Origin: Chloroflexota bacterium
GTDB lineage: Bacteria > Chloroflexota > UBA6077 > FW602-bin22 > JAMCVK01
DNA length: 64,000 bases
NCBI GenBank assembly: GCA_023475225.1
Contig: JAMCVK010000028.1
Coordinates: 9,962 to 73,961, forward strand
Direction of reading: 5' to 3'
Below the pieces are notes generated by a model that did no database searches, had not been told where the DNA came from, and saw only the letters and a list, made by a program, of their open reading frames with translations. A program made the position numbers and the translations under genes. Numbering within the stretch: the stretch's first letter is position 1; every line of letters starts with the position of its first letter. Below, one piece after another: positions 4,032 to 44,790 of this stretch.

Positions 4032-4073
4032 AATGTCCATTCTCATTGTAACCCAAGGGTAGAGGAATCCACA

Positions 4074-8046: not shown

Positions 8047-8070
8047 ATTCCAATAAAGGTAAAGGAAGAG

Positions 8071-10283: not shown

Positions 10284-10335
10284 GATCCTTACTATGGAAA
10301 GGAGTAATGCTTGAGCTATGGAAAGAGCGTTAAAT

Positions 10336-10453
10336 AACGGGGGTTCCAAGGGGCGTAGCCCCTTTGGCAGGGGTCTGGGGATGTGCCCCAGAGCACAAAA
10401 AGAAAGCCCGCAGGGCTACCTTGAACCCCACAGGGGGTTTGGGGGAGATATTC
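10336..10453 (+). repeat. Copy A of a GC-rich multi-hairpin intergenic repeat.
   Basis: Near-identical to 18023..18155. Hairpins: ccaaggggc/gcccctttgg (10346-10367), tctgggg/ccccaga (10374-10392), agccc/gggct (10405-10417), aacccc/ggggtt (10424-10439). In addition ggggttccaagg (10340-10351) is complementary to ccttgaacccc (10419-10429). Confidence 0.8.
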
Positions 10454-10509
10454 GACACCCTCATGGAAACACTAAAGAGCATAGCAGGGGCGCTGTTGCT
10501 GCCCTTTGG

Positions 10510-12958: not shown

Positions 12959-13929
12959 TATTACAGTTACTGGCTGGAGGGTTACTGCTCGTCTTAATTC
13001 TCTCCCGTCTGGATATGGCGAAGCTGGGCAGAATATTCCAATCGGCAGATTATCGCTATATCTTACTGGGAATAGCCTTGTTCGTTGTCAGCACCCTCAT
13101 TGACACCTACCGCTGGCAGATATTTGTGAAACCACTAGGAGTAGCAGTCTCATTACGACGACTCTTCGCCTATTACTACATAAGTCTGCTCCTGGGTATG
13201 TTTTTGCCTGGTAAACTGGGACAGGATTTGACCCGCATCGTTGCCCTATCTCGATCCAGCAAGCACAACGTGGAATCAACCGCTTCGGTGCTCATGGTCA
13301 GGTTTATGGGCATCGTCGCCTTATCCCTGATAGCCTCGCTCTCCCTCGTGTTATCCTGGCCCCTGGTGAGACATACCAACATCACTATCGGCGTAATCGT
13401 CTTGTGCCTGATCTGTGGCACTGGACTTATAGTCTTATTCAATAAGCAGTTATCAGCCAGGATCTTTCACCTGACCTTCGGAGTATCAGTTTGGGATATG
13501 AAAGACATCGCTGAGCGATCGTACACTAGCCTCTCTCTTTATCGGGAGCCCAGGGTCTTGCTCAAGGGGTTGGGGCTGTCCATCGCCACCCATCTTGTGG
13601 CCATAAGCTACACCTATACCCTATCCTTAGCCGTGGGACTGAACACCTCATTTCTCATTTTCCTAAGCGTCATCCCGCTGATTACGGTAGCTTCGATGAT
13701 TCCCGTGACCTTTCAAGGCATTGGGGTACGTGAGGGTGCCTTTGTCTATATATTCAGTCAATTGGGTATAATGGCTGAAAAGGCCTTCGCCCTATCCCTA
13801 ACAACCTACCTGCTTTCCATCCTGAGTGCATTGATAGGCATAGTGGCCTATTTCTCGCTGGTTATGCGGGCCGAAACGCAACCGATTGCTGACCTACCGG
13901 CGTCAGAGACCAGGATCACATCCAGGTGA
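12928..13929 (+). CDS. Flippase-like polytopic membrane protein (lysylphosphatidylglycerol-synthase TM-region / UPF0104-like).
   Basis: 333 aa with about 8 hydrophobic segments. The N-terminal pattern (LxxxxLxxIFxxADYRYILLGIALFVVSTLIDTYRWQIF) is typical of this family. Confidence 0.6.
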   Translation: MLTSLRRNLLVLQLLAGGLLLVLILSRLDMAKLGRIFQSADYRYILLGIALFVVSTLIDTYRWQIFVKPLGVAVSLRRLFAYYYISLLLGMFLPGKLGQDLTRIVALSRSSKHNVESTASVLMVRFMGIVALSLIASLSLVLSWPLVRHTNITIGVIVLCLICGTGLIVLFNKQLSARIFHLTFGVSVWDMKDIAERSYTSLSLYREPRVLLKGLGLSIATHLVAISYTYTLSLAVGLNTSFLIFLSVIPLITVASMIPVTFQGIGVREGAFVYIFSQLGIMAEKAFALSLTTYLLSILSALIGIVAYFSLVMRAETQPIADLPASETRITSR

Positions 13930-16900: not shown

Positions 16901-17924
16901 GTCTGATGGCGACTCGGAGACCGCAGAGAAGGCGTATATGAAGGCTATCCTCCTCGACCCTGAGGCCAGCCTGGCTTATACTGGCTTGGGCGATCTGTCC
17001 CTGGATAAAGGAAGTGCGGAGGAAGCGATATCCTGGTACAAAAGGGCCGTGGCTGTGGGTACCCGCCCTTACGATGTGCACCTGCGCTTTGGCGACCTCT
17101 ATCGCTCGCTGGGGAGAGCAGGCGATGCAGCCACCCAGTATAAGCTGGCCGCATCCATCGCCCCTGAGGATCCCTGGATTCGCCTGAGGCTGGGCGACCT
17201 GGCCAAGGGGCAGGGCCAAACGGATCAGGCCGTAAACTATTATAAAGAGGCCATCTCCCTGAACCCCAAATTGGTCTGGGGATATCAAAGATTGGGTGAG
17301 ATGGCTATGGATAAAGGCGACCTCGCCACAGCACGCCAGTACTATGAGAAGGCGTTATCCCTAAATCCTAAATTTTCCTCGGCTCTGGTTAGACTGGGTG
17401 ATATCGTCAAGGAGCAGGGACGAACGGAAGAGGCAACTCAGTATTATCAAAAAGCCATAGAGACTGATCCGGGTCAGTTTTGGGGTTATCTGAGACTGGC
17501 TGAAATAAGCCGAGCTAATGGTGACGTGGAGAAGGCCAAGTCGTATTATAAGCAGGCTGCCTCTCTCGATCCTAGATCACCCTACGCCTTCGTGGCTCTC
17601 GGCGATATCTATCGGAACACGGGGGAAATGAATAAGGCCATAGCCCAGTATGAGAAAGCGGCTCAGGTAGCCCCCAATATGGTTTGGCCATACGTTGGCC
17701 TGGGAGAGTGCTACCGAAGCCTAGACCGGCTGGAAAAGGCAGAGGATATGTATAAAAGGGCAATTCAAATCGACCCCAATAACTTCTGGGCCCACTTCGG
17801 CCTGGCCCAAACCCTCCAGGCCCAGGGCAGAACAAGCGAAGCCATCGCCCAGTACCAGGAGGCCCTCAAGATAGACCCCAGCAACACCTGGGCCCAAAAT
17901 GCGCTGAAACAATTGCAGCCATAA
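13986..17924 (+). CDS. Giant multidomain protein: N-terminal polytopic ArnT/PMT-like (GT-C) membrane domain, a conserved globular domain, a CBM4_9-like domain and a C-terminal TPR array.
   Basis: 1312 aa. Many TM segments. Acidic loop motif IGNDEGNMVYDA. Middle region is paralogous to ORF 1..1247. NGSFED...AWFRDVALEE is CBM-like. More than 10 TPR-type 34-aa repeats (..A..Y.KA..L.P....A...LG..Y). Confidence 0.75.
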   Translation: MRKSQLLNKISHQNRAVGLAERRQLLDGLLAVGVITYGLLVLIRVQRLPLVPFDLDYLAIALFLVALSLWLVGWLGKTGERWWPSSSRIASSLLLITILSADHMTAMLPVRSNVLSIALTFFVLMLVWASQKELQSLWKRAVGLALMLGWASQKELQSLWKRAVGLAERGCTTLTERPSVVTAALLLVYLAIRLWLNRTWIGNDEGNMVYDAKLIAEGYVPFRDFVARGTPLIYFYALFVKLFGANIYVIKTVNAFLSTAIVYVIYLIGTALHSRRAGLLAALLYVLSPIVLTIQTLILVFVQTGLPVSLGAYFFIKSEATSYRRPLFLSGLFLSLSFFTAASSLPFMLSLPLVLGLCRYRRGILDFARRLGYYLAGILVPALAIFGFYTWHLGFPAGVWKPLDISEVGQNMPRLSSEGTIYNWTLGTTLSTYLLALALVALIYIFMTRRSHLYFAGLLLAAWFFSALSVYIWYSFQVGFFNDYTIEFMSPLSLLAALFVTEINKVTLDRQMPKTVNLLTALLVIFSLVSIPIEPVQSSRGTVSYGSIFGSGIMPDTLEKVTRYLKPRVKPNDEIAAWALQYPLQAGCRQLMDISHPLIYDGNARLAEAMGSYSRADIIEHFATRNVKYVVEDGLRPAFPFLDDIRDLTYRLVTMIDEVRIYKRVNDDAFAKAARFVQEHHQDGDIVVSSSMWAKQFLGKYDYFAMQKDYKKYILIDGDQMVDMGQGAPLLSDVRELRNVLSRNQRVWLLAVRGRLTASFMEYVKSRMTLVYQVGTVEVYVSDKTEAWPAIERKKLGVLLANGSFEDRDGDGLPDGWDTLDWKGSTQVYGLERKDGRDVARIEKTNESGGAAYVQYLPLFPGQQYHLRGYAKGAESRIYIEYWDNRWQYFNNDIVSPVESGLFTPSLDWQSFSFEFTAPLEAATARVALAITGPGTAWFRDVALEEAQVYEEKDPSGSFSANGFIELGDIYRSDGDSETAEKAYMKAILLDPEASLAYTGLGDLSLDKGSAEEAISWYKRAVAVGTRPYDVHLRFGDLYRSLGRAGDAATQYKLAASIAPEDPWIRLRLGDLAKGQGQTDQAVNYYKEAISLNPKLVWGYQRLGEMAMDKGDLATARQYYEKALSLNPKFSSALVRLGDIVKEQGRTEEATQYYQKAIETDPGQFWGYLRLAEISRANGDVEKAKSYYKQAASLDPRSPYAFVALGDIYRNTGEMNKAIAQYEKAAQVAPNMVWPYVGLGECYRSLDRLEKAEDMYKRAIQIDPNNFWAHFGLAQTLQAQGRTSEAIAQYQEALKIDPSNTWAQNALKQLQP
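14354..14485 (+). repeat. Two-copy 66-bp in-frame tandem duplication inside the 13986 gene.
   Basis: 14354-14419 and 14420-14485 differ at a single base (t/g). They encode LMLVWASQKELQSLWKRAVGLA / LMLGWASQKELQSLWKRAVGLA. Confidence 0.95.
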
Positions 17925-19514: not shown

Positions 19515-22500
19515 TTGCACGATACTCAACAAAGCGGCAGTGACCGATCAACCGTTCCAGCCGCTAAAATGACCACGTTCATAGACCGCCTCAAGCAAGT
19601 GGTAAAGGGTGAAACCTTGTTGCTACTCACCCTCCTAGCCCTGGGAACAGCCCTCCGTATCTACGGATTGGACGCCAAGAGCTTCTGGGGCGATGAGATA
19701 ATCGTGATGAACGATACTCACCTTGCCAACTACTGGCAGCGCATGTGGGGGCGCCTTGATCCCATCCTCGGTAACGCCGTAATTTACCTCTTTGTACACC
19801 TACGGGAAAATGAATTTACGGCCAGGCTGCCGGCGGCCATCTCCGGCATCGTGATGATCTTCCTCGCCTATAAGCTGGGGAGGCTGCTCTTCAACAAAGA
19901 GGTGGGGCTACTCAGTGCCTTCCTCCTGGCCATCTCCACTTTTCATATCGAGTATTCGCAAGAGGCGCGCTATTACGCCTTCTATGGCATGCTCGCCTTG
20001 TTATCTCTCTACTACTTCTTCCGCGCTATTGCTGATAACCGGATGACGAACTGGATTGGCTACGCCGTTTCGACCACATTGTGTATGTACACTCATATAT
20101 TTACCTTCACCCTGGTAGCCAGCCAGGTCATCCTCTTTGCCCTTCTGTTCCTGGCCGACAGGAGCACCATCCGACGCTGGCTCGCTTTCAATGACGTCAG
20201 ATGGAAAACAGTCCTGGGATTTGGACTGAGCCTGGTCAGCATCTTCGTCGCCAGCCTACCCTGGCTTATGTCAACACCTCTCTTGAAGGTCGGCCTGGGC
20301 CTCACCCCCATCGCCATCATCCAGCACGGCATGGCTGGAAGCGGACCGGGCACGCCCTATGCCAGGTTCAGCCTCGATCTTCTCCAGAACACCTTCCGTG
20401 AATTCAGCAACGATTTCACCCTGTATGGAATCGCTTTTCTCATTGGTTTGGTCGCTTCTATCCGAAGACAACGGGAAAAGGGGCTATCCCTGCTCCTGCT
20501 GACCATCCTGACCATCTGGTTCATCGTTTTGGCTATGCAGGCCGTGGGCGAGTACTTTGCCGTTCGCCGCATCCTCTTCCTGTTGCCACTTGTCCTCATT
20601 CTCGTGGCCAATGGCATAGCCGAGCTGGCTCGCTTGATCAGATTCCTGACCCGACGCTACGTATTGGTTCACCAATACGCCCTGGCCGCCGTCTTCACTA
20701 TCGCTGTCGTCCTATTCACTGGCCTGAGCGTACCTCAATTGAGAGAGTATTACCTATCCCCTAAGGTTCAGGACTGGAGAGCTTTGGCCCACTTCCTGGA
20801 GGCCAACGTTCAACCTGGCGATGCGGTGTTCGTCTCCTCCGCACAGGAATACCCATACCTAACTTACTATTACAAAAGCAAAGTTTTGGATCACCCTGGG
20901 GACCTGGCCCAGATCCAGTCAAAATATGAGAGGGCGTGGCTGGTCTATGGTTACTGGGGAGCAGGGAAGTCCGAACAGCGATGGCTTGACCATAATGCAG
21001 CGGCCATTCCCTTCGCTGGCACTTATCTCTATTATGTTGGGCCGGAGACACATAAAGTGGGAACGGCCATTGATAAGGGCATCTCTTTGTTAAAAGAGGC
21101 CCTCAAGATAGCACCTAATGGCTACGCCTTACACGTTGCTCTGGGTGACCTCTACCTCATACGCGGCGAGACAGAAGAGGCGATCAAGGAGTACCGGGCT
21201 GCGCTTGATGTCTATTCAGCCTATGTTCCAGCGCACATGGCCTTAGGCAGGGCCTACCAGGCACTGGGGCAGCTGGATAAGGCTATGGATGAATATAGAG
21301 CAGTCATCAGGATGTATCCGCAGTCGGCTGGCGCATATGGCGGACTCGTATCGGTTTATGTTAAGGCTGGCCAATTAGACAAGGCCCAGGAGGTCGCTGA
21401 TGCTGCAGCTCGCTCGTGCACGGAGGGGAGCGGTCCGGCCTGGATTCATGTCTTCCTTGGCAATGTCTATCAAAGCAAGGGAGAGTCAGATAAAGCTATC
21501 GCCATATGGGAAAAGGCGGTATCCCTTGACCCCGAGGGAACGGCAGCCGCCCAGGCGCATACGGCTCTGGGCCATCGCTACCTCGAGAGAGGGGATCTGA
21601 ATCGGGCCATTCAGAAGTTCGGCGCAGCAGTCAAAATAAATCCTGATCAGGCTGATGGCCACCGCGGGTTGGCCGTTGTCTACCTGAGGCAGGGGATGAC
21701 AGCTGAGGCCATCGAAGAGTACAAGAAGGTCATAGAAAACGATCGATATTCAGTATGGGGCTATCTAGCGCTGGCTGATATTTACCGCTCTCAGGGCAAG
21801 GCAGATGAGGCCATCGACCTGTACCGTACAGTGATAGCCATCAATCCCAAGATAATAGCCTCCTATGTAGGCTTGGGTGAGAGCTATAAGATAAAGAAAC
21901 AGTGGGAAGAAGCCATCGCCGCATATAATAAGGTCCTGGAGATGGACCAGGATAACGCCCTCGCCTATAGAGGGTTGGGTGATGCCTATCAAGGGCTCGG
22001 CCGGCTGGATGAGGCCATCGCTCGCTACCAAAAGGTGCTCTCCGCCGACCCAGTTAATGAGTGGACCAACTACGGATTGGGCGAGCTCTACCTTAAACAG
22101 GGAAACATGGCCGAGGCCATAAACGCCTTCCAGAAGACTCTCCAGACCAACCCCCAGAACCAGTGGGCCCACCTCAGATTGGGAGAGACCTATGAGAAGC
22201 AGGGGAAGATAGACCTGGCAGAGAAGGAGTATCGCCAGACCCTTGCCGCTGACCCCAACAACGAGTGGGCCAACCTCCACCTGGGCAAACTGTACGAACA
22301 GAAGGAGAGGCTGGATGAGGCCACCGCCGCCTATAAGAAGGTGCTCACCATCAACCCAGCCAACGCCGAGGCCAAACGGGAGCTCCATGGGCTCAGCAAC
22401 GCCTACCGGCTTGCGGCCGATGCCTACAAGTCCCAGGGAAGAATAGCTGAGGCTATAGCCACCTATAAGAAGAGCCTCGACGCCGAGCCGGATAACGAGT

Positions 22501-23732
22501 GGGCCAACTACGGGCTGGGCGAGCTCTACCTCAAACAGGGGAATATCGCCGAGGCCATAAACGCCTTCCAGAAGACCCTCCAGACTAACCCCCAGAACCA
22601 GTGGGCCCACCTCAGATTGGGAGAGACCTATGAGAAACAAGACAAACTAGACCAGGCCATCGAAGAGTACCAGAAGGTCCTCGAATCCAATCCCAACAGC
22701 GAGTGGGCCAACCTCCACCTGGGCAAACTGTACGGCCAAAAGGAGAGGCTAGATGAGGCCACCGCTGCCTATCAGAAGGTGCTCACCCTCAATCCTGATA
22801 ATCAAGAGGCCAGGCAGGGATTGCTTGCCGTAGCCAGCGCCTACCGCACCCAAGGTGATGCCTATAGACAAAAGGGGCAGCTGCCCGAGGCCATCAGCGC
22901 CTATCAGAAAAGCCTCAGCCTTGATACAGAGAACGAATGGGCCAACTATGGGCTGGGTGAGGCCTATTTCCAGATGGGACACGCCACCGAGGCCATAAAC
23001 GCCTTCCAGAAGACTCTCCAAACTAACCCCCAGAACCAATGGGCCCACCTCGGATTGGGAGAGATCTATGAGAAGCAGGAGAAGCTCGACCAGGCTATCG
23101 ACGAGTACCAAAAGGCCCTCAAGGCCAACCCCAACAGCGAGTGGGCCAACCTCCACCTGGGCAACATCTACGCCGGGCAGGAGAAATTGAATGAAGCCAC
23201 CACCTTCTATAAGAAGGTGCTCACCATCGACCCAGCCAACACCGTGGCCAAACAGGGGCTCCAGGGGCTCAGCAACGCCTACCGGCTGCAGGCCGACGCC
23301 TATAAGGCCCAGGGGAAGATGGCTGAGGCCATAGCCACCTACAAGACGAGCCTCTCCACCGACCCGACTAATGAGTGGGCCAACTACGGGCTGGGCGAGC
23401 TCTACCTCAAACAGGGGAATATCGCCGAAGCCATAAACGCCTTCCAGAAGACTCTCCAAACTAACCCCCAGAACCAATGGGCCCACTACGCCCTCGGTGA
23501 GGCCTACCGGAGCCAGGACAAGATCGCTGAGGCTGTGCAGGAATATCTGAAAACCATCGAGATCAATCCCGAGAATGAGTGGGCACACTATAGGTTGGGC
23601 GATATCTATTGGATTCAGGGCAAAAGAGCCGAGGCCATCGCTGAATACAAGAAGGTTCTAGCTATCAATCCGCAAAATGGACCGGCTCAACAAGCCCTAC
23701 AAAGGCTTTTGGCTCAAGGCACAAACCCATAA
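19515..23732 (+). CDS. ArnT/PMT-like (GT-C) polytopic membrane domain fused to a very long TPR array (TMTC-like architecture).
   Basis: 1405 aa. TTG start 9 nt after AGGGAGG. N-terminal ~400 aa are polytopic with LDAKSFWGDE in the first loop. The rest is TPR repeats. Confidence 0.75.
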   Translation: MHDTQQSGSDRSTVPAAKMTTFIDRLKQVVKGETLLLLTLLALGTALRIYGLDAKSFWGDEIIVMNDTHLANYWQRMWGRLDPILGNAVIYLFVHLRENEFTARLPAAISGIVMIFLAYKLGRLLFNKEVGLLSAFLLAISTFHIEYSQEARYYAFYGMLALLSLYYFFRAIADNRMTNWIGYAVSTTLCMYTHIFTFTLVASQVILFALLFLADRSTIRRWLAFNDVRWKTVLGFGLSLVSIFVASLPWLMSTPLLKVGLGLTPIAIIQHGMAGSGPGTPYARFSLDLLQNTFREFSNDFTLYGIAFLIGLVASIRRQREKGLSLLLLTILTIWFIVLAMQAVGEYFAVRRILFLLPLVLILVANGIAELARLIRFLTRRYVLVHQYALAAVFTIAVVLFTGLSVPQLREYYLSPKVQDWRALAHFLEANVQPGDAVFVSSAQEYPYLTYYYKSKVLDHPGDLAQIQSKYERAWLVYGYWGAGKSEQRWLDHNAAAIPFAGTYLYYVGPETHKVGTAIDKGISLLKEALKIAPNGYALHVALGDLYLIRGETEEAIKEYRAALDVYSAYVPAHMALGRAYQALGQLDKAMDEYRAVIRMYPQSAGAYGGLVSVYVKAGQLDKAQEVADAAARSCTEGSGPAWIHVFLGNVYQSKGESDKAIAIWEKAVSLDPEGTAAAQAHTALGHRYLERGDLNRAIQKFGAAVKINPDQADGHRGLAVVYLRQGMTAEAIEEYKKVIENDRYSVWGYLALADIYRSQGKADEAIDLYRTVIAINPKIIASYVGLGESYKIKKQWEEAIAAYNKVLEMDQDNALAYRGLGDAYQGLGRLDEAIARYQKVLSADPVNEWTNYGLGELYLKQGNMAEAINAFQKTLQTNPQNQWAHLRLGETYEKQGKIDLAEKEYRQTLAADPNNEWANLHLGKLYEQKERLDEATAAYKKVLTINPANAEAKRELHGLSNAYRLAADAYKSQGRIAEAIATYKKSLDAEPDNEWANYGLGELYLKQGNIAEAINAFQKTLQTNPQNQWAHLRLGETYEKQDKLDQAIEEYQKVLESNPNSEWANLHLGKLYGQKERLDEATAAYQKVLTLNPDNQEARQGLLAVASAYRTQGDAYRQKGQLPEAISAYQKSLSLDTENEWANYGLGEAYFQMGHATEAINAFQKTLQTNPQNQWAHLGLGEIYEKQEKLDQAIDEYQKALKANPNSEWANLHLGNIYAGQEKLNEATTFYKKVLTIDPANTVAKQGLQGLSNAYRLQADAYKAQGKMAEAIATYKTSLSTDPTNEWANYGLGELYLKQGNIAEAINAFQKTLQTNPQNQWAHYALGEAYRSQDKIAEAVQEYLKTIEINPENEWAHYRLGDIYWIQGKRAEAIAEYKKVLAINPQNGPAQQALQRLLAQGTNP
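22056..23732 (+). repeat. 438-bp (146-codon, four-TPR) super-repeat, about 3.8 copies, inside the 19515 gene.
   Basis: The NEW(A/T)NYGLGE codons recur in frame at 22056, 22494, 22932 and 23370. Long stretches are near-identical at nucleotide level, for example around 22497-22637 versus 23375-23480. Confidence 0.9.
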
Positions 23733-23736
23733 GAAG

Positions 23737-24912
23737 ATGGCCAGAGGCAACCTAAAGGTCATTCTCATTCACAATATCATCTCTCCTCACGTGGTACCCC
23801 AATTCCAGAAACTGGCCCAGAGGCCAGGCCTGGAGCTGAAGGTATACTTTTTGAGCGAGACAGAAGAGAACAGACGCTGGAGGATAAAGCCTGCCTATGG
23901 ATTCGCCTACCAGGTCTTACCTAAAATCACTTTGACGCTCCGCCACCAGGACCTGTTCTCCTATCATATCAATCCCACGGTTATCCTTCACCTTCTCCGG
24001 GATGCGCCAGACGTGGTCGTCAGCGCCGGTTGGGATTCCCTCGCCGCCCAAAGCTCGTTCCTCTTCTGTAAAGTGCGACACCTCCCCTTTGTCCTTTGGT
24101 CCGGAAGCACTATAAACGAACCCAGCTGGCGCAGGGACGTTTCCCTACCTCTGGTCAAATTTATAGTCAGGCATTCTGACGCCTACATCGCCTATGGGAC
24201 GAGGGCCAAAGAGTATCTCATTCACCTGGGAGCGCCTGCTGAGCGGATATTCATCTCCATTAATACTGTTGACACAGAGTATTTCCAGTCAAATAGTATG
24301 ATGTCCGAGGTGGAAAAAGCCGCCCTTACAGAGAGGCTGGGCATTCAGACTACAAAAACGATTCTCTACGTAGGGCAGTTGATCGAAAGAAAAGGAGTCA
24401 CTCACCTATTGAGAGCTTATGCCCTCCTAAAAAGGGAATATTCTGACGTTTCCCTGCTCATCGTCGGCTATGGTTACCAGGAGGGGGAACTGAAGGATAT
24501 CTGCGAGCGAGAACAGATTGAGGACGTCGTTTTCCTGGGGCACATTGATGTTAGCGAAGTACCCAGATTCTACGGACTGGCCGATCTCTTCGTCCTGCCC
24601 TCCAGCGAGGAGGTCTGGGGCTTAGTGATCAATGAAGCGCTGGCCTGTGGTCTCCCAGTGATCACCACGAACAAGGTCGGGGCCTCAGTTGACCTTGTGA
24701 AAGAGGGGAAAAACGGTTATATTGTGGAGGCAGGCAACGTCGTTCAGCTCTACCAGTCCATGAAGAGGGTGATCACTGATACCGCTTTAGCCAAGGCGAT
24801 GGGCGTAGTATCACGGCAGCTAAGTGAAAAGTTCACCATCGACAGCACGGTTGATGGCCTCATTTCAGCCATTAGGTATGCAGCGAACACCAGGAGACGG
24901 GACAGACAATGA
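23737..24912 (+). CDS. Glycosyltransferase, GT4 family.
   Basis: Start taken at MARGNLKVILIHN (ATG 23737), just after the upstream stop at 23732. The listed 23677 start overlaps that gene. GT4 C-terminal motif VLPSSEEVWGLVINEALACGLPVITT. Confidence 0.8.
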   Translation: MARGNLKVILIHNIISPHVVPQFQKLAQRPGLELKVYFLSETEENRRWRIKPAYGFAYQVLPKITLTLRHQDLFSYHINPTVILHLLRDAPDVVVSAGWDSLAAQSSFLFCKVRHLPFVLWSGSTINEPSWRRDVSLPLVKFIVRHSDAYIAYGTRAKEYLIHLGAPAERIFISINTVDTEYFQSNSMMSEVEKAALTERLGIQTTKTILYVGQLIERKGVTHLLRAYALLKREYSDVSLLIVGYGYQEGELKDICEREQIEDVVFLGHIDVSEVPRFYGLADLFVLPSSEEVWGLVINEALACGLPVITTNKVGASVDLVKEGKNGYIVEAGNVVQLYQSMKRVITDTALAKAMGVVSRQLSEKFTIDSTVDGLISAIRYAANTRRRDRQ

Positions 24913-25775
24913 GTGTTGAAGCCACACCACTCGGCCAGGATCAGCTTGCAAAGTATCCCCTTGTGATCATCAAGCCCACGCGTGGCTGGAGGCTCCTCGA
25001 TCTCAAGGAGCTCTGGGAGTATCGAGAGCTTATCTACTTTCTGACTCTACGGGATATCAAAGTTCGTTACAAGCAGACATTAATAGGCATAGGTTGGGCT
25101 ATTTTGCAACCCCTTGGCATGATGCTGGTGTTCACCATTTTTTTTGGCACACTGGCGAAAATCCCCTCGGAGGGAGTTCCTTATCCATTATTTGTATACA
25201 CAGCCTTGTTACCCTGGCAATTGTTCTCCAAGAGCATAAGTGAATCCAGCCAGAGTCTGATTACAGACCAGCGCCTAATTACGCGGGTCTATTTTCCCCG
25301 CTTGATCGTGCCTCTATCCAGCGTTCTGGCAGGCCTACTCGACTTCGCCATCGGATTACTCTTATTGGCCGGTCTCATGGTGTTATACGGTGTCATCCCT
25401 ACAGTTGGCATAGCCTTTATCCCATTGCTCGTACTGTTGATGCTGGCGGTGGCCCTGGGTATCGGCTTTTGGCTTTCGGCCCTGAACCTGGAATACCGCG
25501 ATGTGCAATACGTAGTCCCTTTCTTGAACCAGTTCTGGCTGTTCATCACCCCAGTCGTCTATGGGAGCAGCATGATTCCGCAGCAATGGCGCATCGTCTA
25601 CGCGCTTAACCCGATGGTGGGAGTGATAGAAGGATTCCGTTGGGCATTACTAAGTGCCGGAGAGTGCCCCGGCCTGCTTCTTGCAGTGTCAGGAGGCATT
25701 GCCTTCGCTCTGCTGGTCAGTGGGGTTATGTTCTTCCGCCGTAGGGAACGAACCTTCGTGGACGCTGTAGGCTAA
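24909..25775 (+). CDS. wzm: ABC-2 type polysaccharide/polyol-phosphate export permease (Wzm/TagG-like).
   Basis: 288 aa, 6 predicted TM segments. N-terminal LWEYRELIYFLTLRDIKVRYKQT signature of ABC-2 exporters. Starts with an ATGA overlap with the upstream gene and is followed by the ATPase. Confidence 0.8.
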   Translation: MSVEATPLGQDQLAKYPLVIIKPTRGWRLLDLKELWEYRELIYFLTLRDIKVRYKQTLIGIGWAILQPLGMMLVFTIFFGTLAKIPSEGVPYPLFVYTALLPWQLFSKSISESSQSLITDQRLITRVYFPRLIVPLSSVLAGLLDFAIGLLLLAGLMVLYGVIPTVGIAFIPLLVLLMLAVALGIGFWLSALNLEYRDVQYVVPFLNQFWLFITPVVYGSSMIPQQWRIVYALNPMVGVIEGFRWALLSAGECPGLLLAVSGGIAFALLVSGVMFFRRRERTFVDAVG

Positions 25776-25789
25776 GGAGAGCGTCGAGA

Positions 25790-27073
25790 ATGAGCGAGAT
25801 GGCTATTCAGGTAGAAGGCTTGAGCAAGCGGTATCGCATTGGCGAGTTGCAGCGATATAAAGCCCTGCGCGATACGCTGACTGATGCCATGTATGCGCCC
25901 TTCCGTGCCATCGCCTCAGCGCTGAACGGTCGGCAGTCGCCAGTCGCCAATCGGCAACCAGATACCTACATCTGGGCCTTGAAAGATATTTCCCTGGAGA
26001 TCGACCGAGGCGAGGTTGCGGGCATCATTGGGCGCAATGGTGCCGGGAAGAGCACATTTTTAAAGATTCTCTCTCGTATCACCGAGCCGACTGAGGGGTA
26101 CGCCGTGATTCATGGGCGGGTAGGATCGCTCCTGGAGGTAGGGACCGGTTTCCATCCAGAGCTGACTGGACGGGAGAACGTCTACCTCAATGGAGCCATC
26201 CTGGGGATGAGAAAGACGGAGATCGAGCGCAAGTTCGCTGAGATCGTATCGTTTGCTGAGGTGGAGAAGTTCATAGACACACCGGTGAAATTCTACTCCA
26301 GTGGCATGTACGTCCGCCTCGCCTTTGCTGTCGCCGCCCACCTGGAGCCAGAGATTTTGCTGGTGGACGAAGTGCTGGCGGTTGGGGATATAGCGTTTCA
26401 GCAGAAGTGTTTAGGGAAGATGGGGGATGTAGCACGAGGCGGCCGGACCATACTCTTTGTCAGTCATAATATGGCGGCCATATCTGCCCTATGTTCTAAA
26501 GCATACCTTTTGCACCAGGGGCACATATCAGCCTCTGGCCCAGTGCAAACGGTTATCGAACAGTACTTGAATGAGATGAAGCTACTGGCCGGTGTTTCTC
26601 TAAACGGGCGAACCGACCGCCAGGGTGACGGCAAAATGCGACTCACGGAGGTAGTCATCAGAGACGGAGCTGGGGATCCGATTGAACTGGCCGTCCCAGG
26701 GCAAGACATTACGATTGAAATATATTATGCCGCTCAGGAACTAGCGCCACTCAGGAATGTATCTATGGCCATTGGATTATATGGTATACTGGGGCAATTC
26801 CTGCTCTTTTGCGGAAACGAGATGGTGGGCGAGCCATTCGAAGCCATCCCCCCAAAGGGTAAGATGATCTGCCGAATTCCACGTTTTCCCTTAGCTCCCG
26901 GACGCTATGCTCTGAATCTCCACTGTGAAGTGAACGGGGTCCTGGCTGACTGGGTACAACAGGCCAGTTATCTCACAGTGGCTGAAGGGGATTTCTTCGG
27001 CAGCGGGAGGTTACCACCGTCGAGCCATGGCGGTTTGTTGGTGCCCCACACCTGGAGCTGCGAAGGAGAATAA
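25790..27073 (+). CDS. wzt: Polysaccharide ABC exporter ATP-binding protein (Wzt/TagH-like) with a ~170-aa C-terminal extension (Wzt_C-like glycan-binding domain).
   Basis: Walker A GRNGAGKST, signature YSSGMYVRLAFA, Walker B LLVDEVLAVGD. After about residue 250 there is a beta-rich extension (RLTEVVIRDGAGDPIE...GRYALNLH). Confidence 0.8.
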   Translation: MSEMAIQVEGLSKRYRIGELQRYKALRDTLTDAMYAPFRAIASALNGRQSPVANRQPDTYIWALKDISLEIDRGEVAGIIGRNGAGKSTFLKILSRITEPTEGYAVIHGRVGSLLEVGTGFHPELTGRENVYLNGAILGMRKTEIERKFAEIVSFAEVEKFIDTPVKFYSSGMYVRLAFAVAAHLEPEILLVDEVLAVGDIAFQQKCLGKMGDVARGGRTILFVSHNMAAISALCSKAYLLHQGHISASGPVQTVIEQYLNEMKLLAGVSLNGRTDRQGDGKMRLTEVVIRDGAGDPIELAVPGQDITIEIYYAAQELAPLRNVSMAIGLYGILGQFLLFCGNEMVGEPFEAIPPKGKMICRIPRFPLAPGRYALNLHCEVNGVLADWVQQASYLTVAEGDFFGSGRLPPSSHGGLLVPHTWSCEGE

Positions 27074-29410: not shown

Positions 29411-29413
29411 GCT

Positions 29414-30157: not shown

Positions 30158-30165
30158 CAGATGGA

Positions 30166-34491: not shown

Positions 34492-35511
34492 GTGTCTAAT
34501 AAATATCAGGGCAGCTATGAGAAGGCATTCTCCGATAAGAGGGTACTGATTACGGGTGGTTTGGGATTTATCGGCAGTAATCTCGCCCGACGCTTAATTG
34601 AACTTGGGGCTGATGTGCTCCTGGTAGATTCGCTGATCCCCGATTATGGCGGCAATCTCTTTAATATCGCTGGGATAGAACAGTTTGTTAAGGTAAACAT
34701 CGCCGATGTGCGTGACAGAAACGGTATGAATTACCTGGTGCGTGGGCATGATTACCTTTTCAACCTAGCTGGCCAGGTGAGCCACATAGACAGTATGCTG
34801 GATCCCCACACGGATCTGGAGATAAATTGCCGCAGTCAACTCTCCATCCTGGAGGCCTGCCGAAGGAACAATCCCGCTGTCAAAATAGTCTTCGCCAGCA
34901 CGCGCCAGATCTACGGCGTCCCCGACTACTTACCCATAGATGAAAAGCATCTCCTCCATCCTACAGATGTCAATGGCATCAACAAGATGGCCGGGGAATG
35001 GTATCATATCCTTTATAATAACATCTACGGAATCCGCTCCTGCGCCCTGCGGCTCACTAACACCTATGGCCCTCGCATGCTAATGAAACACAATCGTCAA
35101 GGATTCATAGCCTGGTTCATTCGACTGGCCATAGATGGAGAAGAGATCCATCTCTATGGCGATGGCCAACAGCGGCGTGACTGTAACTACGTTGATGATG
35201 TCGTGGAAGCCTTCCTTTTAGCCGCTGCCAAAGACGAGGCCAATGGTCAGGTCTTCAACCTGGGCAGTGGCGAACCTGTCAGCCTTCTTGAATTTGTGCA
35301 TTTGCTACATGAGCTATGTGGGCGGGGTTCCTACAAGCTCACTCCTTTTCCCCCTGAAAAGAAAAGGATCGATATCGGTGACTACTACGCAGACTACAGC
35401 AAAATCAAGAATACTTTAGGCTGGCAACCTTATACACCTTTACGGGAGGGATTACGCCGCACTCTGGACTTCTACAAAACTAACAAGGAGCACTATTGGT
35501 CCAACAACTGA
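34492..35511 (+). CDS. Extended SDR (NAD-dependent epimerase/dehydratase family) acting on a nucleotide sugar. The catalytic triad is atypical.
   Basis: 339 aa. Rossmann motif [14 protein letters not shown]. The expected S..YxxxK appears as FAST(137)...VN(161)GINK(165). Confidence 0.75.
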
Positions 35512-36608
35512 TCCCTTTCGGTGACCTACGGCGGCAATATGCAGCAATACATTCAGAGATTCAAGGCGCTCTCGAAGGCGTCCTCGAGCGTGGTTGGTTT
35601 ATTCTGGGCGAGCAGGTAACCGCCTTTGAAGAGGAATGGGCCGCCTACTGTGGCACGAAATATGCCATCGGTGTTGGCTCTGGAACAGAAGCACTGCATC
35701 TGGCCCTACTCGCCTGCAGGGTAGGACCTGGTGATGAGGTGATCACCGTACCAAACACTGCTGTTCCAACTGTATCAGCCATATCATTCGCCGGGGCCAG
35801 GCCAGTCTTTGTTGACATCGACCCTCGAAGCTACACGATGGATCTCTCATTGCTCCCAGCCTGCATCGGACCACGAACTAAGGCGATCATACCCGTGCAT
35901 CTATTCGGTCAAGCGGCCGATATGGATCCCATAATGGCCGTAGCCAGAGAGTACAATCTTAAAGTGATCGAAGATGCCTGTCAGGCCCATGGGGCAGAGT
36001 ATAAGGGCAAACGTGTGGGGTCCATCGGGGATGTGAACTGTTTCAGCTTCTATCCAAGCAAAAATCTGGGCGCCTATGGGGATGGTGGAGCGGTAGTAAC
36101 GAACGATGCCGAACTGGCCGAAAAATTGCGTTTGCTGCGGAACTATGGACAGGAAAAACGCTACTATCACGCTATCAAGGGCTTTAACAGTCGGCTCGAT
36201 GAGATGCAAGCAGCTATTCTGAGGGTAAAACTGGCCAAGCTTGATAAGTGGAATGAGCGCCGACGCGAACTGGCTAATCTTTACGAAGATATGCTCACCG
36301 ATACTGATATCATCTGTCCTAGCGAGATGCCCTACACCAGGCACGTCTATCACCTGTACGTGATCCGCAGCCCAGCTAGAGATTATTTGCAAAAACACCT
36401 ACTCCAGTGCGGTATCGGTACAGCCATACATTATCCTCTGCCGGTTCATCTGCAGCCGGCCTACGCTGACCTTGGGCTCGGGCTCAAATCCTTTCCCATC
36501 GCTGAACAATACGCCACTCAGATACTCTCGCTGCCCATGTATCCAGAGCTGAAGGAAGAGGAGGTGGCCCAGGTTGCCCAAGCGATTGGAAGCTTCTCGG
36601 CGAAATAG
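35496..36608 (+). CDS. DegT/DnrJ/EryC1/StrS-family PLP-dependent sugar aminotransferase.
   Basis: 370 aa. [28 protein letters not shown], and [10 protein letters not shown] (PLP Lys). Confidence 0.85.
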
Positions 36609-36644
36609 GCTCTCCCTTACTACAGACATAGAGGTTAGCACCCA

Positions 36645-37313
36645 ATGAAAGGGGACAACTTCTTTGTGGTAATCCCCGCTTTCAACGAAGGGGAAAGGAT
36701 CAGGCCGGTCTTAGCCGAAACAAAAAAACATGCTCCAAACATCATCGTTGTTGACGATGGCTCAAGCGATGAGACCTATAAGGCAGCGCAAGAGTGCGGG
36801 GTTATCACTCTGCGACATGAGGTCAATCTAGGCAAGGGAGCTGCCCTCAAAACTGGCTGTGAGGCCGCCTTCTCCCTGGGGGCCAGGGCCATCATTCTCA
36901 TGGACTCTGATGGCCAGCACAGGCCCGCAGAGATCCCCAATTTTGTTAGCACCTTGAAAGATAGAGGGGTTGGCCTAGTCTTAGGTTCACGTGTTATAGG
37001 CCCAGGCATGCCCCTAATACGGGCTTGGGGCAATAAGATCGATCTATTTCTACTTAACCTTCTCTTTGGTGCCCGCGTCACAGATCCCCTCTGCGGTTTT
37101 CGGGCCCTTACCGCGCAGGCCTATGAAAAAATCAGGTGGCGGTCCACAGGATATGCCGTGGAAACAGAGATGATCGTCCGTGCCAGACTGGCCCGCTTAC
37201 CCTTTGTGGAAATACCTGTGGAGACCGTGTATATCGACAAATACAAAGGGGTCACCATCCTTGATGCCTACAGAATTCTCTTGGAACTCATAAAATGGAG
37301 ATTTTTAGGATGA
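36645..37313 (+). CDS. GT2 polyprenol-phosphate glycosyltransferase (GtrB/ArnC/DPM1-like).
   Basis: 222 aa soluble GT2. VVIPAFNEGERI, VVDDGSSDET, ILMDSDGQH. Confidence 0.75.
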   Translation: MKGDNFFVVIPAFNEGERIRPVLAETKKHAPNIIVVDDGSSDETYKAAQECGVITLRHEVNLGKGAALKTGCEAAFSLGARAIILMDSDGQHRPAEIPNFVSTLKDRGVGLVLGSRVIGPGMPLIRAWGNKIDLFLLNLLFGARVTDPLCGFRALTAQAYEKIRWRSTGYAVETEMIVRARLARLPFVEIPVETVYIDKYKGVTILDAYRILLELIKWRFLG

Positions 37314-37666
37314 TTACCGGAATTCAAATCGTCGCCGTCGTTTTCAGCTTTCTAATGCTTTATATTACCTTTCTTCACTTCAAGCGCCGGGAACTTACTA
37401 CTAGGGAGACACTGTTTTTCGGACTTCTTTGGGTAGGAGCCATTTTCCTGACTATTTTCCCTAAGAGCGTGGATTTCCTTTTGAAAACGTTTCGCATATT
37501 GCGCCTTATGGACCTAGCCACCATAGTGGGCTTTATGGTCCTAATCGCTCTTTCCTTTCACAATTTCCTTACCATTCGTAAACTTGAGGAAAAAATAGAA
37601 AAGCTGGTGCGCTATAATGCCTTGAACAAGATAGACAAGCCAGAAGGCGATGAAAAACTATCCTAA
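37310..37666 (+). CDS. Small 4-TM membrane protein (DUF2304-like) coupled to the polyprenol-phosphate GT2.
   Basis: The ATG at 37310 forms an ATGA overlap with the GT2 stop. The listed 37295 is an alternative start. 118 aa with hydrophobic segments and a charged C-terminal tail. Confidence 0.6.
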   Translation: MITGIQIVAVVFSFLMLYITFLHFKRRELTTRETLFFGLLWVGAIFLTIFPKSVDFLLKTFRILRLMDLATIVGFMVLIALSFHNFLTIRKLEEKIEKLVRYNALNKIDKPEGDEKLS

Positions 37667-38435
37667 AATCTCGGTTGTCACCCCATCGTTCAACCAGGCC
37701 GCTTTCATTGAACGAACGATTAAGAGCATTTTGAGGCAAAATTATCCAGATCTTGAGTACATCATTATGGATGGTGGTTCAACCGATGGAACTGTGGAGA
37801 TCCTGAAGAAATACGAGGACAAAATTATCTGGAAATCCGAGAAGGATAGAGGACAAGCCCACGCCATCAATAAGGGGTTAGCCCTGGCCACCGGGGATAT
37901 CCTGGCTTATCTTAATTCAGACGATGCTTATGAGGACAAAACCCTTCTTAAAATAGCCGAGTTCTTCCAAAGGCACCCTGAAACCAAATGGATCTATGGA
38001 AAGTGTCGCATCGTTGACGAAAGCTCTAGAGAGATTCGTCATTGGATTACCGCCTATAAGAATTTCTTTCTCACCAGATATAATTACGGTGCCCTTTTGG
38101 TTTTGAACTTCCTTTCCCAACCGGCCGTTTTTTGGCGGCGACAAATCCTGGATGAATGCGGCTTTTTTGACGAAAGGGAATATTATGTAATGGATTACGA
38201 ATACTGGCTCAGGATCGGCCAAAAATATAAACCGGGTGTCATCAATGATTATCTAGCCTCATATCGGATCCATCCCTCAGCCAAGAGCACGTCATCCTTT
38301 GGCAAACACTATTCCCAAGAAATTGAGGTGGCCAAAAGGTACACCCAAAACCCAGTCCTCATTCTCCTACATCACCTTAACTTTTTCAGTATTCTTTTTA
38401 CTTATAATCTTCTTAAGGTTCTGAGAGGTAGTTGA
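37650..38435 (+). CDS. Glycosyltransferase, GT2 family.
   Basis: ISVVTPSFNQAAFIERTIKSILRQNYPDLEYIIMDGGSTDGT and LNSDDAY. Confidence 0.8.
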   Translation: MKNYPKISVVTPSFNQAAFIERTIKSILRQNYPDLEYIIMDGGSTDGTVEILKKYEDKIIWKSEKDRGQAHAINKGLALATGDILAYLNSDDAYEDKTLLKIAEFFQRHPETKWIYGKCRIVDESSREIRHWITAYKNFFLTRYNYGALLVLNFLSQPAVFWRRQILDECGFFDEREYYVMDYEYWLRIGQKYKPGVINDYLASYRIHPSAKSTSSFGKHYSQEIEVAKRYTQNPVLILLHHLNFFSILFTYNLLKVLRGS

Positions 38436-40561: not shown

Positions 40562-40569
40562 AGCGTCGT

Positions 40570-41778: not shown

Positions 41779-41779
41779 T

Positions 41780-42313: not shown

Positions 42314-42328
42314 ATCCCCGACTCCTTC

Positions 42329-44766: not shown

Positions 44767-44790
44767 CTCACCTTCCCCTAAATATAGTTC

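Follow-up and report, generated by a model that had tools for sequence, protein, structure and literature searches.

A Chloroflexota sugar-polymer cluster with a candidate five-gene module for a polyprenyl-phosphate amino sugar

Introduction

How polyprenyl-phosphate-linked sugars serve in extracytoplasmic glycosylation is known well for a few pathogens and hardly at all for Chloroflexi and Patescibacteria. The three-component form of transmembrane glycosylation consists of a GtrB/CsbB-type GT2, a GtrA-type flippase, and a GT-C enzyme (PMC8035078). Here, we present an analysis of four genes at 34492-37666 in a stretch of Chloroflexota DNA (the window, i.e., the whole 64,000 nucleotides analyzed), which raise the question of whether they provide a lipid-linked sugar for GT-C enzymes encoded nearby and, if so, which kind of sugar. 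The initial annotation considered them an Arn-like module that supplies a lipid-linked amino sugar to three GT-C proteins. The outline of this reading, i.e., a GT2 of the polyprenyl-phosphate type and the co-occurrence with GT-C genes, was upheld, while the Arn-specific parts and the module boundary were not. Altogether, we suggest, with a probability of roughly 0.55, that a five-gene donor module joining two widespread cassettes makes a polyprenyl-phosphate amino sugar for GT-C enzymes.

Results

All four ORFs are present on the + strand, and independent gene calls on three public contigs gave the same products of 339, 370, 222, and 118 aa. Based on Pfam and hydropathy, they encode, as originally assigned, an extended SDR (34492..35511; PF01370, E 9.5e-49), a DegT-family PLP aminotransferase (35496..36608; PF01041, E 3e-127, 425 bits), a GT2 without transmembrane helices (36645..37313; PF00535, E 4e-24), and a small membrane protein (37310..37666), to which the Pfam search adds membership in DUF2304 (PF10066, 69 bits against a cut-off of 25.5). 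The genes had also been described as consecutive and overlapping; this applies to the SDR/DegT junction (16-nt overlap) and to the GT2/DUF2304 junction, where the ATG of the DUF2304 gene lies over the GT2 stop codon (ATGA), but not to the DegT and GT2 genes, which are separated by a gap of 36 nt. Similarly, the module had been taken to end at 37666; however, a second GT2 gene (37650..38435, + strand; 261 aa, PF00535, 110 bits) shares 17 nt with the DUF2304 gene and is retained together with it in relatives. Spacing is tight or overlapping throughout the five genes from the SDR to the second GT2. A GT4 gene (33283-34464) and a glycan-type GT2 gene flank the four genes. We conclude that the four genes are real, tightly packed, and located inside a Chloroflexi sugar-polymer cluster, which also encodes a Wzm/Wzt ABC exporter (24909..27073, + strand; ABC2_membrane, and ABC_tran plus Wzt_C). 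Pfam scans of the cluster ORFs identified no nucleotidyltransferase, ketoisomerase, or N-acyltransferase, and the pathway can therefore not be read from the genes.

The SDR retains the NAD-binding GxxGxxG motif and, in HMMER alignments to the GalE, TyvE, and RmlB structures, can be aligned with NDP-sugar enzymes from end to end. In the same alignments, an Asn sits at the position of the catalytic Tyr; instead of the canonical Ser/Thr-Tyr-Lys of the extended SDR epimerases and dehydratases (GalE/RmlB/UXS), the triad is Thr137-Asn161-Lys165 (T-N-K), and ASTRQ stands where dehydratases have STDE and decarboxylases have STSE. N161, K165, and T137-R138-Q139 are invariant among 15 homologs, and these residues are retained in ~110 of 150 cluster representatives. 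We presume that the SDR makes the keto sugar for the aminotransferase; lacking the catalytic Tyr, it may be something other than the oxidase assumed here.

The aminotransferase contains the PLP lysine (FYPSKNLG). Its PDB matches include 7b0d (493 bits), QdtB (426 bits), DesV (360 bits), and WbpE (321 bits) and, lower down, perosamine synthetase (252 bits) and ArnB (about 190-200 bits); the ten best matches, QdtB, DesV, and WbpE among them, all outrank ArnB. Counted from the printed alignments, the identity is ~55% to QdtB and ~65% to 7b0d. The characterized members of the QdtB/DesV/WbpE clade act at C-3 of the sugar. Judged by sequence, the aminotransferase belongs to this C-3 clade and not to the C-4 clade of ArnB, suggesting that amination occurs at C-3.

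The GT2 at 36645 is the sole polyprenyl-phosphate-type GT2 in the cluster. Its best NCBIfam matches are PpgS (110 bits), AglJ (87 bits), and a Dol-P hexose transferase (57 bits), while DPMS and ArnC are its only PDB sequence matches. The top Foldseek matches of an AF2 model (pLDDT 86.7) were ArnC, DPMS, GpgS, and GtrB, with TM-scores of 0.66-0.81 for ArnC, DPMS, and GtrB (GtrB, 0.66-0.80). GpgS is a glucosyl-3-phosphoglycerate synthase, and its acceptor is a soluble phosphate and not a lipid. The D87-x-D89-G-Q-H sequence, which includes the DxD motif, is invariant in alignment A1, and hydrophobic segments are absent (the 19-residue Kyte-Doolittle mean peaks at 1.32). Based on sequence and predicted fold, the GT2 groups with the polyprenyl-phosphate transferases PpgS, AglJ, DPMS, ArnC, and GtrB, in line with the initial annotation; the NCBIfam, PDB, and fold comparisons agree and did not point to a processive or glycan-elongating GT2. 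Because its score against the PpgS equivalog model NF058614 (109.7 bits) is far under the cut-off of 370, the GT2 is not a PpgS ortholog; rather, its sequence places it in the same class and a different subfamily. We presume it to be a GacI/PpgS-type synthase of a polyprenyl-phosphate sugar.

The 118-aa protein has three hydrophobic segments (residues 4-22, 33-51, and 63-81) and a charged C-terminal tail, and PF10066 is its sole family match at E <= 0.01. The proposal that it is an ArnE/F (SMR-like) or GtrA flippase was abandoned, as it matches neither family and instead falls in that of GacJ/Rv3632. GacJ is a DUF2304 protein, and GacJ and Rv3632 stimulate GacI and PpgS, respectively. Family membership thus points to an activating or anchoring partner of the GT2. 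Alternatively, the DUF2304 protein could itself flip the lipid-linked sugar: it is small, has several membrane helices, and is coupled to the GT2 in translation; Pfam scans of the cluster identified neither GtrA- nor SMR-type genes and, among the ORFs of at least 150 aa, nothing of the Wzx type; and the other flippase candidate (12928-13929; see below) is not conserved with the pair. However, in the Gac system, flipping is attributed to GacK and stimulation of the synthase to GacJ/Rv3632 (Rush et al.), making this alternative quite improbable.

A true Arn pathway would involve UDP-GlcA decarboxylation, C-4 amination, ArnC, and ArnE/F, leading to 4-amino-4-deoxy-arabinose. [quoted passage not shown] By contrast, the NCBIfam models for ArnA, ArnB, and ArnC gave only 43, 248, and 29 bits against cut-offs of 777, 631, and 529, respectively. 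The ArnA/UXS motif consists of Thr-Ser-Glu and Tyr-x3-Lys; at these positions, the SDR has Thr-Arg-Gln and Asn-x3-Lys, and we rejected its assignment as an ArnA/UXS decarboxylase. Nor is the aminotransferase a counterpart of ArnB, given scores of 320-430 bits for QdtB, DesV, and WbpE against ~190-200 bits for the ArnB structures. Moreover, the Arn set is incomplete, with no formyltransferase or deformylase domain in the cluster ORFs of at least 150 aa (Pfam), and the small protein matches DUF2304 alone. A true Arn pathway is contradicted by the SDR motif and the model scores and is, in our opinion, barely conceivable.

Three GT-C genes, at 10510, 13986, and 19515, had been proposed to use the lipid-linked sugar. 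They are located 13-26 kb upstream of the four-gene module, and one of the three, the only one to exceed the Pfam PMT_2 threshold, is firm. The gene at 19515..23732 (+ strand) encodes a 1405-aa membrane GT-C fused to a long TPR domain, with 58-60 bits to PMT_2 (cut-off, 26.1) and E 1e-26 to a GT-C profile built without window sequences; its product is the presumed consumer of the lipid-linked sugar. The 1312-aa product of 13986..17924 (+ strand) has twelve hydrophobic segments in its first 600 aa and TPR repeats, but scores below the PMT_2 cut-off (21.8 bits against 26.1), shares 24% identity with the 19515 product over 94 aa only, and gave no match to the external GT-C profile; we consider it a probable GT-C/TPR protein, an assignment that is weaker than that of 19515. 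Finally, the gene at 10510 is represented by two abutting ORFs (10318-10938 and 10935-12038; 10318..12038, + strand) with weak PMT/PMT_2 and Glyco_transf_22 matches, the first of which can be aligned with the N-terminal portion of that profile. A G7 run just before the junction is where a frameshift probably split this GT-C-like gene. Between it and the GT-C/TPR gene at 13986 lies a gene for a 333-aa flippase-like polytopic membrane protein (12928..13929, + strand) with matches to PF03706 (138 bits) and to the TIGR00374 "flippase-like domain" (76.5 bits; cut-off, 43.2). With low confidence, we regard this protein as a candidate flippase of the lipid-linked sugar; elsewhere, a homolog lies near a GT2-DUF2304 pair in 1 of 71 loci.

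Among these 71 related loci, 65 have a DUF2304 homolog 0-65 nt downstream of the GT2 gene on the same strand. GT-C genes lie within 10 kb of the pair in 40 of the 71 loci based on phmmer with PMT_2-annotated seeds and in 51 based on an iterated profile, both being raw counts with no background rate; usually, there are three to six GT-C genes in tandem on the same strand, as is clear in loci L076 and L075. These observations agree with the initial expectation that a GT2 with a small membrane partner co-occurs with GT-C genes, and within 10 kb around the loci, we did not find the pair to be widespread without them. A homolog of the second GT2 directly follows DUF2304 in 38 of the 71 loci, an SDR gene separates the two in ~8 others, and L075 and L076 also have such a homolog. 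The best match of the second GT2 is TuaG in NCBIfam, and its best PDB matches are chondroitin synthase and SpsA-type enzymes. By sequence, it is of the nucleotide-sugar-to-glycan type, and its conservation makes it the third member of a core with GT2 and DUF2304.

DegT, on the other hand, is present in 4 of the 71 loci. Therefore, the sugars loaded by this GT2 family mostly require no amination, and what links the window GT2 to the SDR/DegT product is the adjacency of the genes. The window could also hold two separate functions, in which the GT2/DUF2304 pair takes an ordinary sugar (a hexose or HexNAc) from a common UDP-sugar and loads it onto polyprenyl phosphate for use by the GT-C enzymes, while the amino sugar made by SDR/DegT goes to cytoplasmic glycosyltransferases, i.e., the GT4 (33283-34464) and the second GT2, that build the polymer exported by Wzm/Wzt. 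In favor of separate functions, DegT is missing from 67 of the 71 loci, a GT4 and a glycan-type GT2 lie on either side of the four genes, and a canonical SDR adjoins the pair in 36 of the 71 loci, often as the sole addition. The GalE1 epimerase gene near ppgS in Mycobacterium tuberculosis (PMC5389812) is a parallel for such an SDR.

The loci around the SDR argue in the other direction. A polyprenyl-phosphate-type GT2 gene is directly upstream of the T-N-K SDR gene in 52 of 70 metagenome loci, DegT immediately follows it in 48 of 59, and 34 of 54 loci show both; these GT2s are ArnC-like, the commonest order is GT2-SDR-DegT, and the three genes are the sole conserved neighborhood. We also identified natural SDR(T-N-K)-DegT fusion proteins (P0271, P0350, and P0389) and, among the matches listed, more than 577 metagenomic relatives of the SDR-DegT pairing. 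We conclude that SDR-DegT is a widespread cassette that usually adjoins an ArnC-like GT2 gene and is sometimes fused, and the pairing of a Tyr-less SDR with a C-3-clade aminotransferase is large, conserved, and apparently undescribed. None of 80 T-N-K SDR loci contained DUF2304, and the gene combination seen here is therefore unusual. The SDR/DegT cassette is not tied to GT4 genes or to genes similar to the second GT2, with matches to the latter in 3 of the 80 loci. This, together with the ties to polyprenyl-phosphate-type GT2 genes (52/70) and the position of the sole such GT2 gene here, 36 nt downstream of the DegT gene, argues against two separate functions, which we consider possible but unlikely.

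The order GT2-SDR-DegT raises a further alternative, by which a hexose would first be attached to polyprenyl phosphate by the GT2 and then be oxidized and aminated on the lipid by the T-N-K SDR and DegT, in analogy to DprE1/DprE2, which act on decaprenyl-phosphoribose. A 76%-identical SDR adjoins a Dol-P-hexose-type GT2 in the absence of DegT (L079/L080), and the non-canonical active site of the SDR hints at a non-canonical substrate. However, the aminotransferase is 55-65% identical to solved enzymes that include QdtB, the substrate of which is a nucleotide sugar; the full-length alignment of the SDR with NDP-sugar enzymes likewise favors a nucleotide-linked substrate; and no aminotransferase is known to us to use a polyprenyl-linked sugar as its substrate. 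Thus, modification on the lipid appears very improbable; if true, it would be the first lipid-linked sugar transamination.

In locus L075, a DegT gene (50% identity to that of the window at the protein level) lies upstream of two PpgS-like GT2-DUF2304 pairs and is paired with genes for a Gfo/Idh/MocA oxidoreductase, which takes the place of the SDR, and an acetyltransferase. The Gfo/Idh/MocA family includes known sugar 3-dehydrogenases. We tentatively speculate, while considering it somewhat less probable than its opposite, that the T-N-K SDR represents a novel type of nucleotide-hexose 3-dehydrogenase, in which case neither a Gfo/Idh/MocA oxidase nor a dehydratase-plus-isomerase route would be necessary.

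Discussion

The SDR-DegT and GT2-DUF2304 cassettes are both conserved elsewhere, and both point to a polyprenyl-phosphate amino sugar. Starting from the observed gene structure, families and folds, conserved pairings, GT-C co-occurrence, and SDR-DegT fusions, we suggest that the T-N-K SDR and DegT would convert a common nucleotide sugar via a keto intermediate to a nucleotide amino sugar. The DUF2304 protein would bind the GT2 at the membrane and stimulate it, as in GacI/GacJ or PpgS/Rv3632, and the GT2 would transfer the sugar to polyprenyl monophosphate. A separate protein, with the TIGR00374 protein (12928-13929) as a candidate, would flip the lipid-linked sugar, which the PMT_2-type GT-C/TPR enzymes of the cluster would use outside the membrane. 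We infer the substrate and product sugars, the use of the SDR/DegT product by the GT2, and the flippase, as well as the acceptor, which could be the Wzm/Wzt-exported polymer or a protein. While the overall scheme is well known, the enzymes that make the amino sugar are unusual.

If the lipid-linked or the 3-dehydrogenase reading is true, the triad of ArnC-like GT2, SDR, and DegT represents an uncharacterized route to amino-sugar lipid donors. Should the SDR-DegT pairing make a lipid-linked 3-amino sugar, it would be a novel way of decorating the cell surface with positive charges and would also provide a simple system of three genes for probing SDR function without the tyrosine.

Among known systems, Arn (PmrHFIJKLM) shares the logic of oxidation, amination, loading on polyprenyl phosphate, flipping, and transfer by a PMT_2-type GT-C. 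The closest architectural parallel is the triad of ArnC-like GT2, SDR, and DegT in other genomes, and the 19515-23732 protein corresponds to the ArnT-like PMT_2-family GT-C at the family level only. The window differs from Arn in lacking the decarboxylase motif, the catalytic Tyr, formylation/deformylation, and ArnE/F and in having a C-3-clade aminotransferase. Gtr systems share the general mechanism, and two of their three component types are present in the window; however, GtrB and CsbB have their own transmembrane helices, whereas the window GT2 has none and a DUF2304 partner instead, it resembles GtrB in fold, and no GtrA (PF04138) homolog was found in the cluster.

In Haloferax, AglJ and then AglG assemble a glycan on dolichyl monophosphate. 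Among the models matching the GT2, AglJ comes second (87 bits), and the second GT2 weakly matches AglG (30 bits), raising the idea that the lipid-linked sugar might be extended before transfer; yet, these scores are far under the cut-offs, and the context here is bacterial. In M. tuberculosis, PpgS (Rv3631), the top NCBIfam model for the window GT2, functions with Rv3632 and Rv3779; PpgS is stimulated by its paired small membrane protein, and a GT-C transfers the lipid-linked amino sugar, which is GalNAc at first and GalN in the end. In that system, UDP-GalNAc comes from an epimerase, while the window sugar would be made via an aminotransferase.

Finally, GacI/GacJ/GacK/GacL of Streptococcus pyogenes and EpaI/EpaJ of Enterococcus faecalis have, like the window, a cytoplasmic GT2 directly followed by a three-helix DUF2304 protein. 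In these systems, a GT-C uses a polyprenyl-monophosphate sugar to decorate an ABC-exported polymer, and the window has the corresponding GT2, DUF2304, GT-C, and Wzm/Wzt genes. Gac differs in that it uses plain UDP-GlcNAc and the Wzx-like flippase GacK, whereas no Wzx-like gene was found in the cluster studied here, which in turn has an upstream SDR and aminotransferase, GT-C proteins with long TPR domains, and a Chloroflexi host. GacI/GacJ-like pairs beside GT-C gene arrays are very common in Chloroflexi and Patescibacteria.

Results

The four genes are arranged in a row on the plus strand and encode an SDR (34492-35511; 339 aa; PF01370), a DegT aminotransferase (35496-36608; 370 aa; PF01041), a GT2 (36645-37313; 222 aa; PF00535), and a small membrane protein (37310-37666; 118 aa; PF10066), each assigned with a strong Pfam score. 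The same four products are predicted on three independent public contigs with identical proteins. The initial annotation described these as four overlapping genes. Its coordinates and families are confirmed, the SDR and DegT genes share 16 nt, and the stop codon of the GT2 gene is shared with the start of the 118-aa gene in an ATGA; however, the DegT and GT2 genes are separated by a 36-nt gap. Because no promoter or terminator signal between 33000 and 39400 rises above the shuffled expectation, the limits of the operon are defined by gene spacing only.

Curated models, matches to solved structures, and the predicted fold agree that the GT2 is of the polyprenyl-phosphate type. The best curated models, each scoring below its equivalog cut-off, are PpgS, a polyprenyl-phospho-GalNAc synthase (110 bits), AglJ (87 bits), and dolichyl-phosphate hexose transferase (57 bits). 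The solved structures matched by the sequence are dolichyl-phosphate mannose synthase (DPMS) and ArnC only. The protein has zero hydrophobic segments, and its AlphaFold2 model (pLDDT 86.7) aligns with ArnC, DPMS, and GtrB with TM-scores of 0.66-0.81. GpgS, which transfers to a soluble phosphate, is also among the structural matches, and no processive GT2 is among the top 50. By sequence and predicted fold, the GT2 therefore groups with polyprenyl-phosphate transferases and not with the processive GT2 enzymes. Two other GT2 genes (30166-31194 and 37650-38435) were rejected as lipid-carrier transferases on comparison.

The 118-aa protein has three hydrophobic segments followed by a charged tail, and PF10066 (DUF2304) is the sole family that it matches at E ≤ 0.01; a homolog search returned five matches only, owing to the word index. 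DUF2304 is the family of GacJ of Streptococcus pyogenes, a membrane protein with three helices that co-purifies with the GT2 GacI and whose presence lowers the Km of GacI for undecaprenyl phosphate from 18.7 to 1.1 µM. The lipid-linked sugar in the Gac system is consumed by the GT-C enzyme GacL. In mycobacteria, the GacJ homolog Rv3632 stimulates PpgS, and the consumer is Rv3779, also a GT-C enzyme. Because of this family membership, the 118-aa protein is best read, by analogy, as a putative synthase partner of the GT2 and not as the ArnE/F- or GtrA-type flippase that had been suggested. We consider it improbable that the protein doubles as a flippase, a role that would be compatible with the pathway proposed here.

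An alignment of GT2 homologs, scanned against a single genome for each species, identified 71 loci, mostly in Patescibacteria. In 65 of the 71, the GT2 gene is followed at a distance of 0-65 nt by a DUF2304 homolog in the same orientation. Directly after it, 38 of the 71 loci have a homolog of the second GT2 of the window (37650-38435), while an SDR gene intervenes between the two in ~8 further loci. Because the second-GT2 homolog is kept behind DUF2304, the conserved core is GT2-DUF2304-GT2, and a module ending at 37666 is one gene short. The second GT2 gene is directly followed by a phosphoribosyltransferase-like gene (38432-39037) of the PRK07322 subfamily (203 bits, above the cut-off), a homolog of which is present in 0 of the 71 related loci.

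GT-C-like polytopic ORFs are located within 10 kb in 40/71 loci using PMT_2-annotated seeds and in 51/71 using an iterated profile, both raw counts. We give the range because the iterated profile may have drifted; among its 10 weakest loci, three were above the Pfam PMT_2 cut-off and one was weak. The nearby ORFs are mostly three to six tandem paralogs of ~500-560 aa on the same strand. In the two closest relatives examined, either four PMT_2 genes precede GT2-DUF2304-GT2-SDR (L076), or PMT_2 genes lie downstream of two tandem GT2-DUF2304 pairs (L075). Within 10 kb, the GT2-DUF2304 pair is thus not one that is widespread without a GT-C partner. The main alternative to our model is that the GT2 and DUF2304 protein load an ordinary sugar and that cytoplasmic transferases receive the amino sugar. 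The lack of DegT in 67 of the 71 GT2-DUF2304 loci favors this alternative, which we nevertheless regard as unlikely. The cluster in the window contains no polyprenyl-phosphate-type GT2 other than the one at 36645, which begins 36 nt after the DegT gene.

Against solved structures, the aminotransferase scored 493 bits with PDB 7b0d (for which we found no relevant paper in the literature), 426 with QdtB, 360 with DesV, and 321 with WbpE versus 252 with perosamine synthetase, the highest-ranking C-4 enzyme, and ~190-200 with ArnB. QdtB, DesV, and WbpE aminate at C-3. Together with a score of 248 bits in the curated ArnB model, for which the cut-off is 631, these data argue against the proposed ArnB-like identity. 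Amination could also take place on the lipid-linked sugar; however, DegT is 55-65% identical to solved aminotransferases, the nucleotide-sugar enzyme QdtB included, making amination at the lipid level very unlikely.

In alignments of the SDR to GalE-, TyvE-, and RmlB-type structures, the position of the catalytic Tyr is occupied by Asn ("DVNGINK" versus "SPYGIAK"), and the catalytic Thr is followed by Arg-Gln. In published structures, the latter residues are Asp-Glu in dehydratases and Ser-Glu in UXS/ArnA. Because of these substitutions, the SDR is by motif neither an ArnA-like decarboxylase, as initially suggested, nor a 4,6-dehydratase. A 4,6-dehydratase feeding a 3,4-ketoisomerase was also rejected because the cluster has no cupin/isomerase gene; more generally, Pfam scans of the ORFs of the cluster found no nucleotidyltransferase, ketoisomerase, formyltransferase, or acyltransferase. 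A literal, one-to-one Arn pathway is thus contradicted by motifs as well as model scores, and we consider it hardly credible. The Asn and Arg-Gln positions are invariant across 15 homologs with 72-77% identity. Among the 150 best representatives of clusters formed at 50% identity, ~110 keep Thr-Asn-Lys and "TRQ", and the canonical Tyr is confined to relatives at ~40-43% identity. These proteins form a large extended-SDR clade with Thr-Asn-Lys instead of the Ser/Thr-Tyr-Lys triad plus the "TRQ" motif; to our knowledge, no member has been characterised.

Searching metagenomes with the SDR alignment yielded >577 relatives; 80 loci were retained and counted only where the contig had room. Within these, a polyprenyl-phosphate-type GT2 lies directly upstream of the SDR in 52/70 loci, DegT directly downstream in 48/59, and both in 34/54; DUF2304 occurs in none of the 80. 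ArnC is the best curated model and the best PDB match (79 bits) for this GT2 partner. The ArnC-like GT2, Thr-Asn-Lys SDR, and DegT are the only conserved neighbourhood in the 80 loci, and the cassette recurs amid very varied surroundings. Close SDR homologs are found in Anaerolineae as GT2-SDR-DegT-methyltransferase-Wzy_C (IctB-like membrane protein). Another context lacks DegT; there, four polytopic ORFs (~545-554 aa) stand behind GT2-SDR-GT2, and two of the four carry a PMT_2 annotation. Three proteins (P0271, 707 aa; P0350; P0389) are fusions of a Thr-Asn-Lys SDR to DegT, which is strong sequence evidence that the two enzymes would act one after the other in a pathway. Other architectures among the representatives include a Thr-Asn-Lys SDR with an N-terminal GT-A-looking domain that has no Pfam match at 1e-5 (P0264), four double-SDR proteins (P0249, P0287, P0367, P0374), none of which is Asn-type (seven domains with Tyr and one with Phe), and a Tyr-type SDR joined to a methyltransferase (P0324).

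In L075 (1154-8076), a Gfo/Idh/MocA oxidoreductase/hexapeptide acetyltransferase/DegT block stands directly before the two GT2-DUF2304 pairs, a second way to put an amino-sugar pathway upstream of a GacI/PpgS-type synthase. Its DegT is 50% identical to that of the window, and the pairing with an oxidoreductase suggests that the window SDR takes the role of sugar oxidase.

Of the three GT-C consumers originally proposed, only 19515-23732 is firm. Because a GT-C profile built without window sequences missed 13986-17924, we downgrade this protein to a probable GT-C. The membrane domains of this protein and the 19515-23732 protein, both GT-C/TPR, show hardly any similarity (24% identity over 94 aa, E 0.004) and, therefore, "paralogs" overstates their relationship. 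The third candidate (10318-12038) consists of two abutting ORFs in different frames, each with a weak PMT or GT22 signal, and with the joint length and hydrophobic segments expected for a GT-C; a G7 run (~10923-10929) directly precedes their junction. It is probably one GT-C gene interrupted by a frameshift in the homopolymer, due to an assembly error or to phase variation.

Modifying enzymes abound in the cluster. Its regions 2583-10283 and 27083-33212 encode radical SAM proteins (two that bind B12 and one of the SPASM type), six or more SAM methyltransferase domains, and an amidotransferase of the AsnB type that comes close to the XrtA/PEP-CTERM-associated family (670 bits, below the cut-off of 817). 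The glycan of the cluster is probably heavily methylated or amidated. The minus strand carries an operon for System I cytochrome c maturation (39153-45774; CcmB, ABC ATPase, CcmH, CcmF) with interleaved zinc-ribbon (DZR) proteins, which runs convergently into the end of the glycan cluster.

Discussion

Two cassettes, both widespread, meet in the window, and each has its own link to polyprenyl-phosphate chemistry: SDR-DegT is usually partnered by an ArnC-like GT2, and GT2-DUF2304-GT2 is usually found with GT-C arrays. We suggest that (i) the SDR would oxidise a nucleotide sugar; (ii) DegT would aminate the keto sugar, probably at C-3; (iii) the GT2 and DUF2304 protein would load the amino sugar onto polyprenyl phosphate; (iv) the lipid-linked sugar would be flipped, for which the TIGR00374 flippase-like protein (12928-13929) is a weak candidate; and (v) GT-C/TPR enzymes would consume it outside the membrane. 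We assign a probability of roughly 55% to this entire chain and have good confidence in the narrower putative function, i.e., that the GT2/DUF2304 pair supplies GT-C enzymes with a polyprenyl-phosphate sugar of some kind. One possible acceptor is the polymer exported by Wzm/Wzt, as initially suggested. Because the GT-C/TPR architecture recalls that of eukaryotic TMTC protein O-mannosyltransferases, the acceptor could, by analogy, also be a protein.

In a limited literature search, we found no description of the ArnC-like GT2/SDR/DegT triad and nothing on GacI/J in Patescibacteria. The general mechanism is already established in the Gac, Epa, PpgS, Arn, and Gtr systems and, therefore, the module does not represent a new kind of system. 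Rather, what is new is the combination of the SDR-DegT and GT2-DUF2304-GT2 cassettes, the family of Thr-Asn-Lys SDRs that are paired with, or fused to, an aminotransferase of the C-3 clade, and the abundance of the ArnC-like GT2/SDR/DegT triad.
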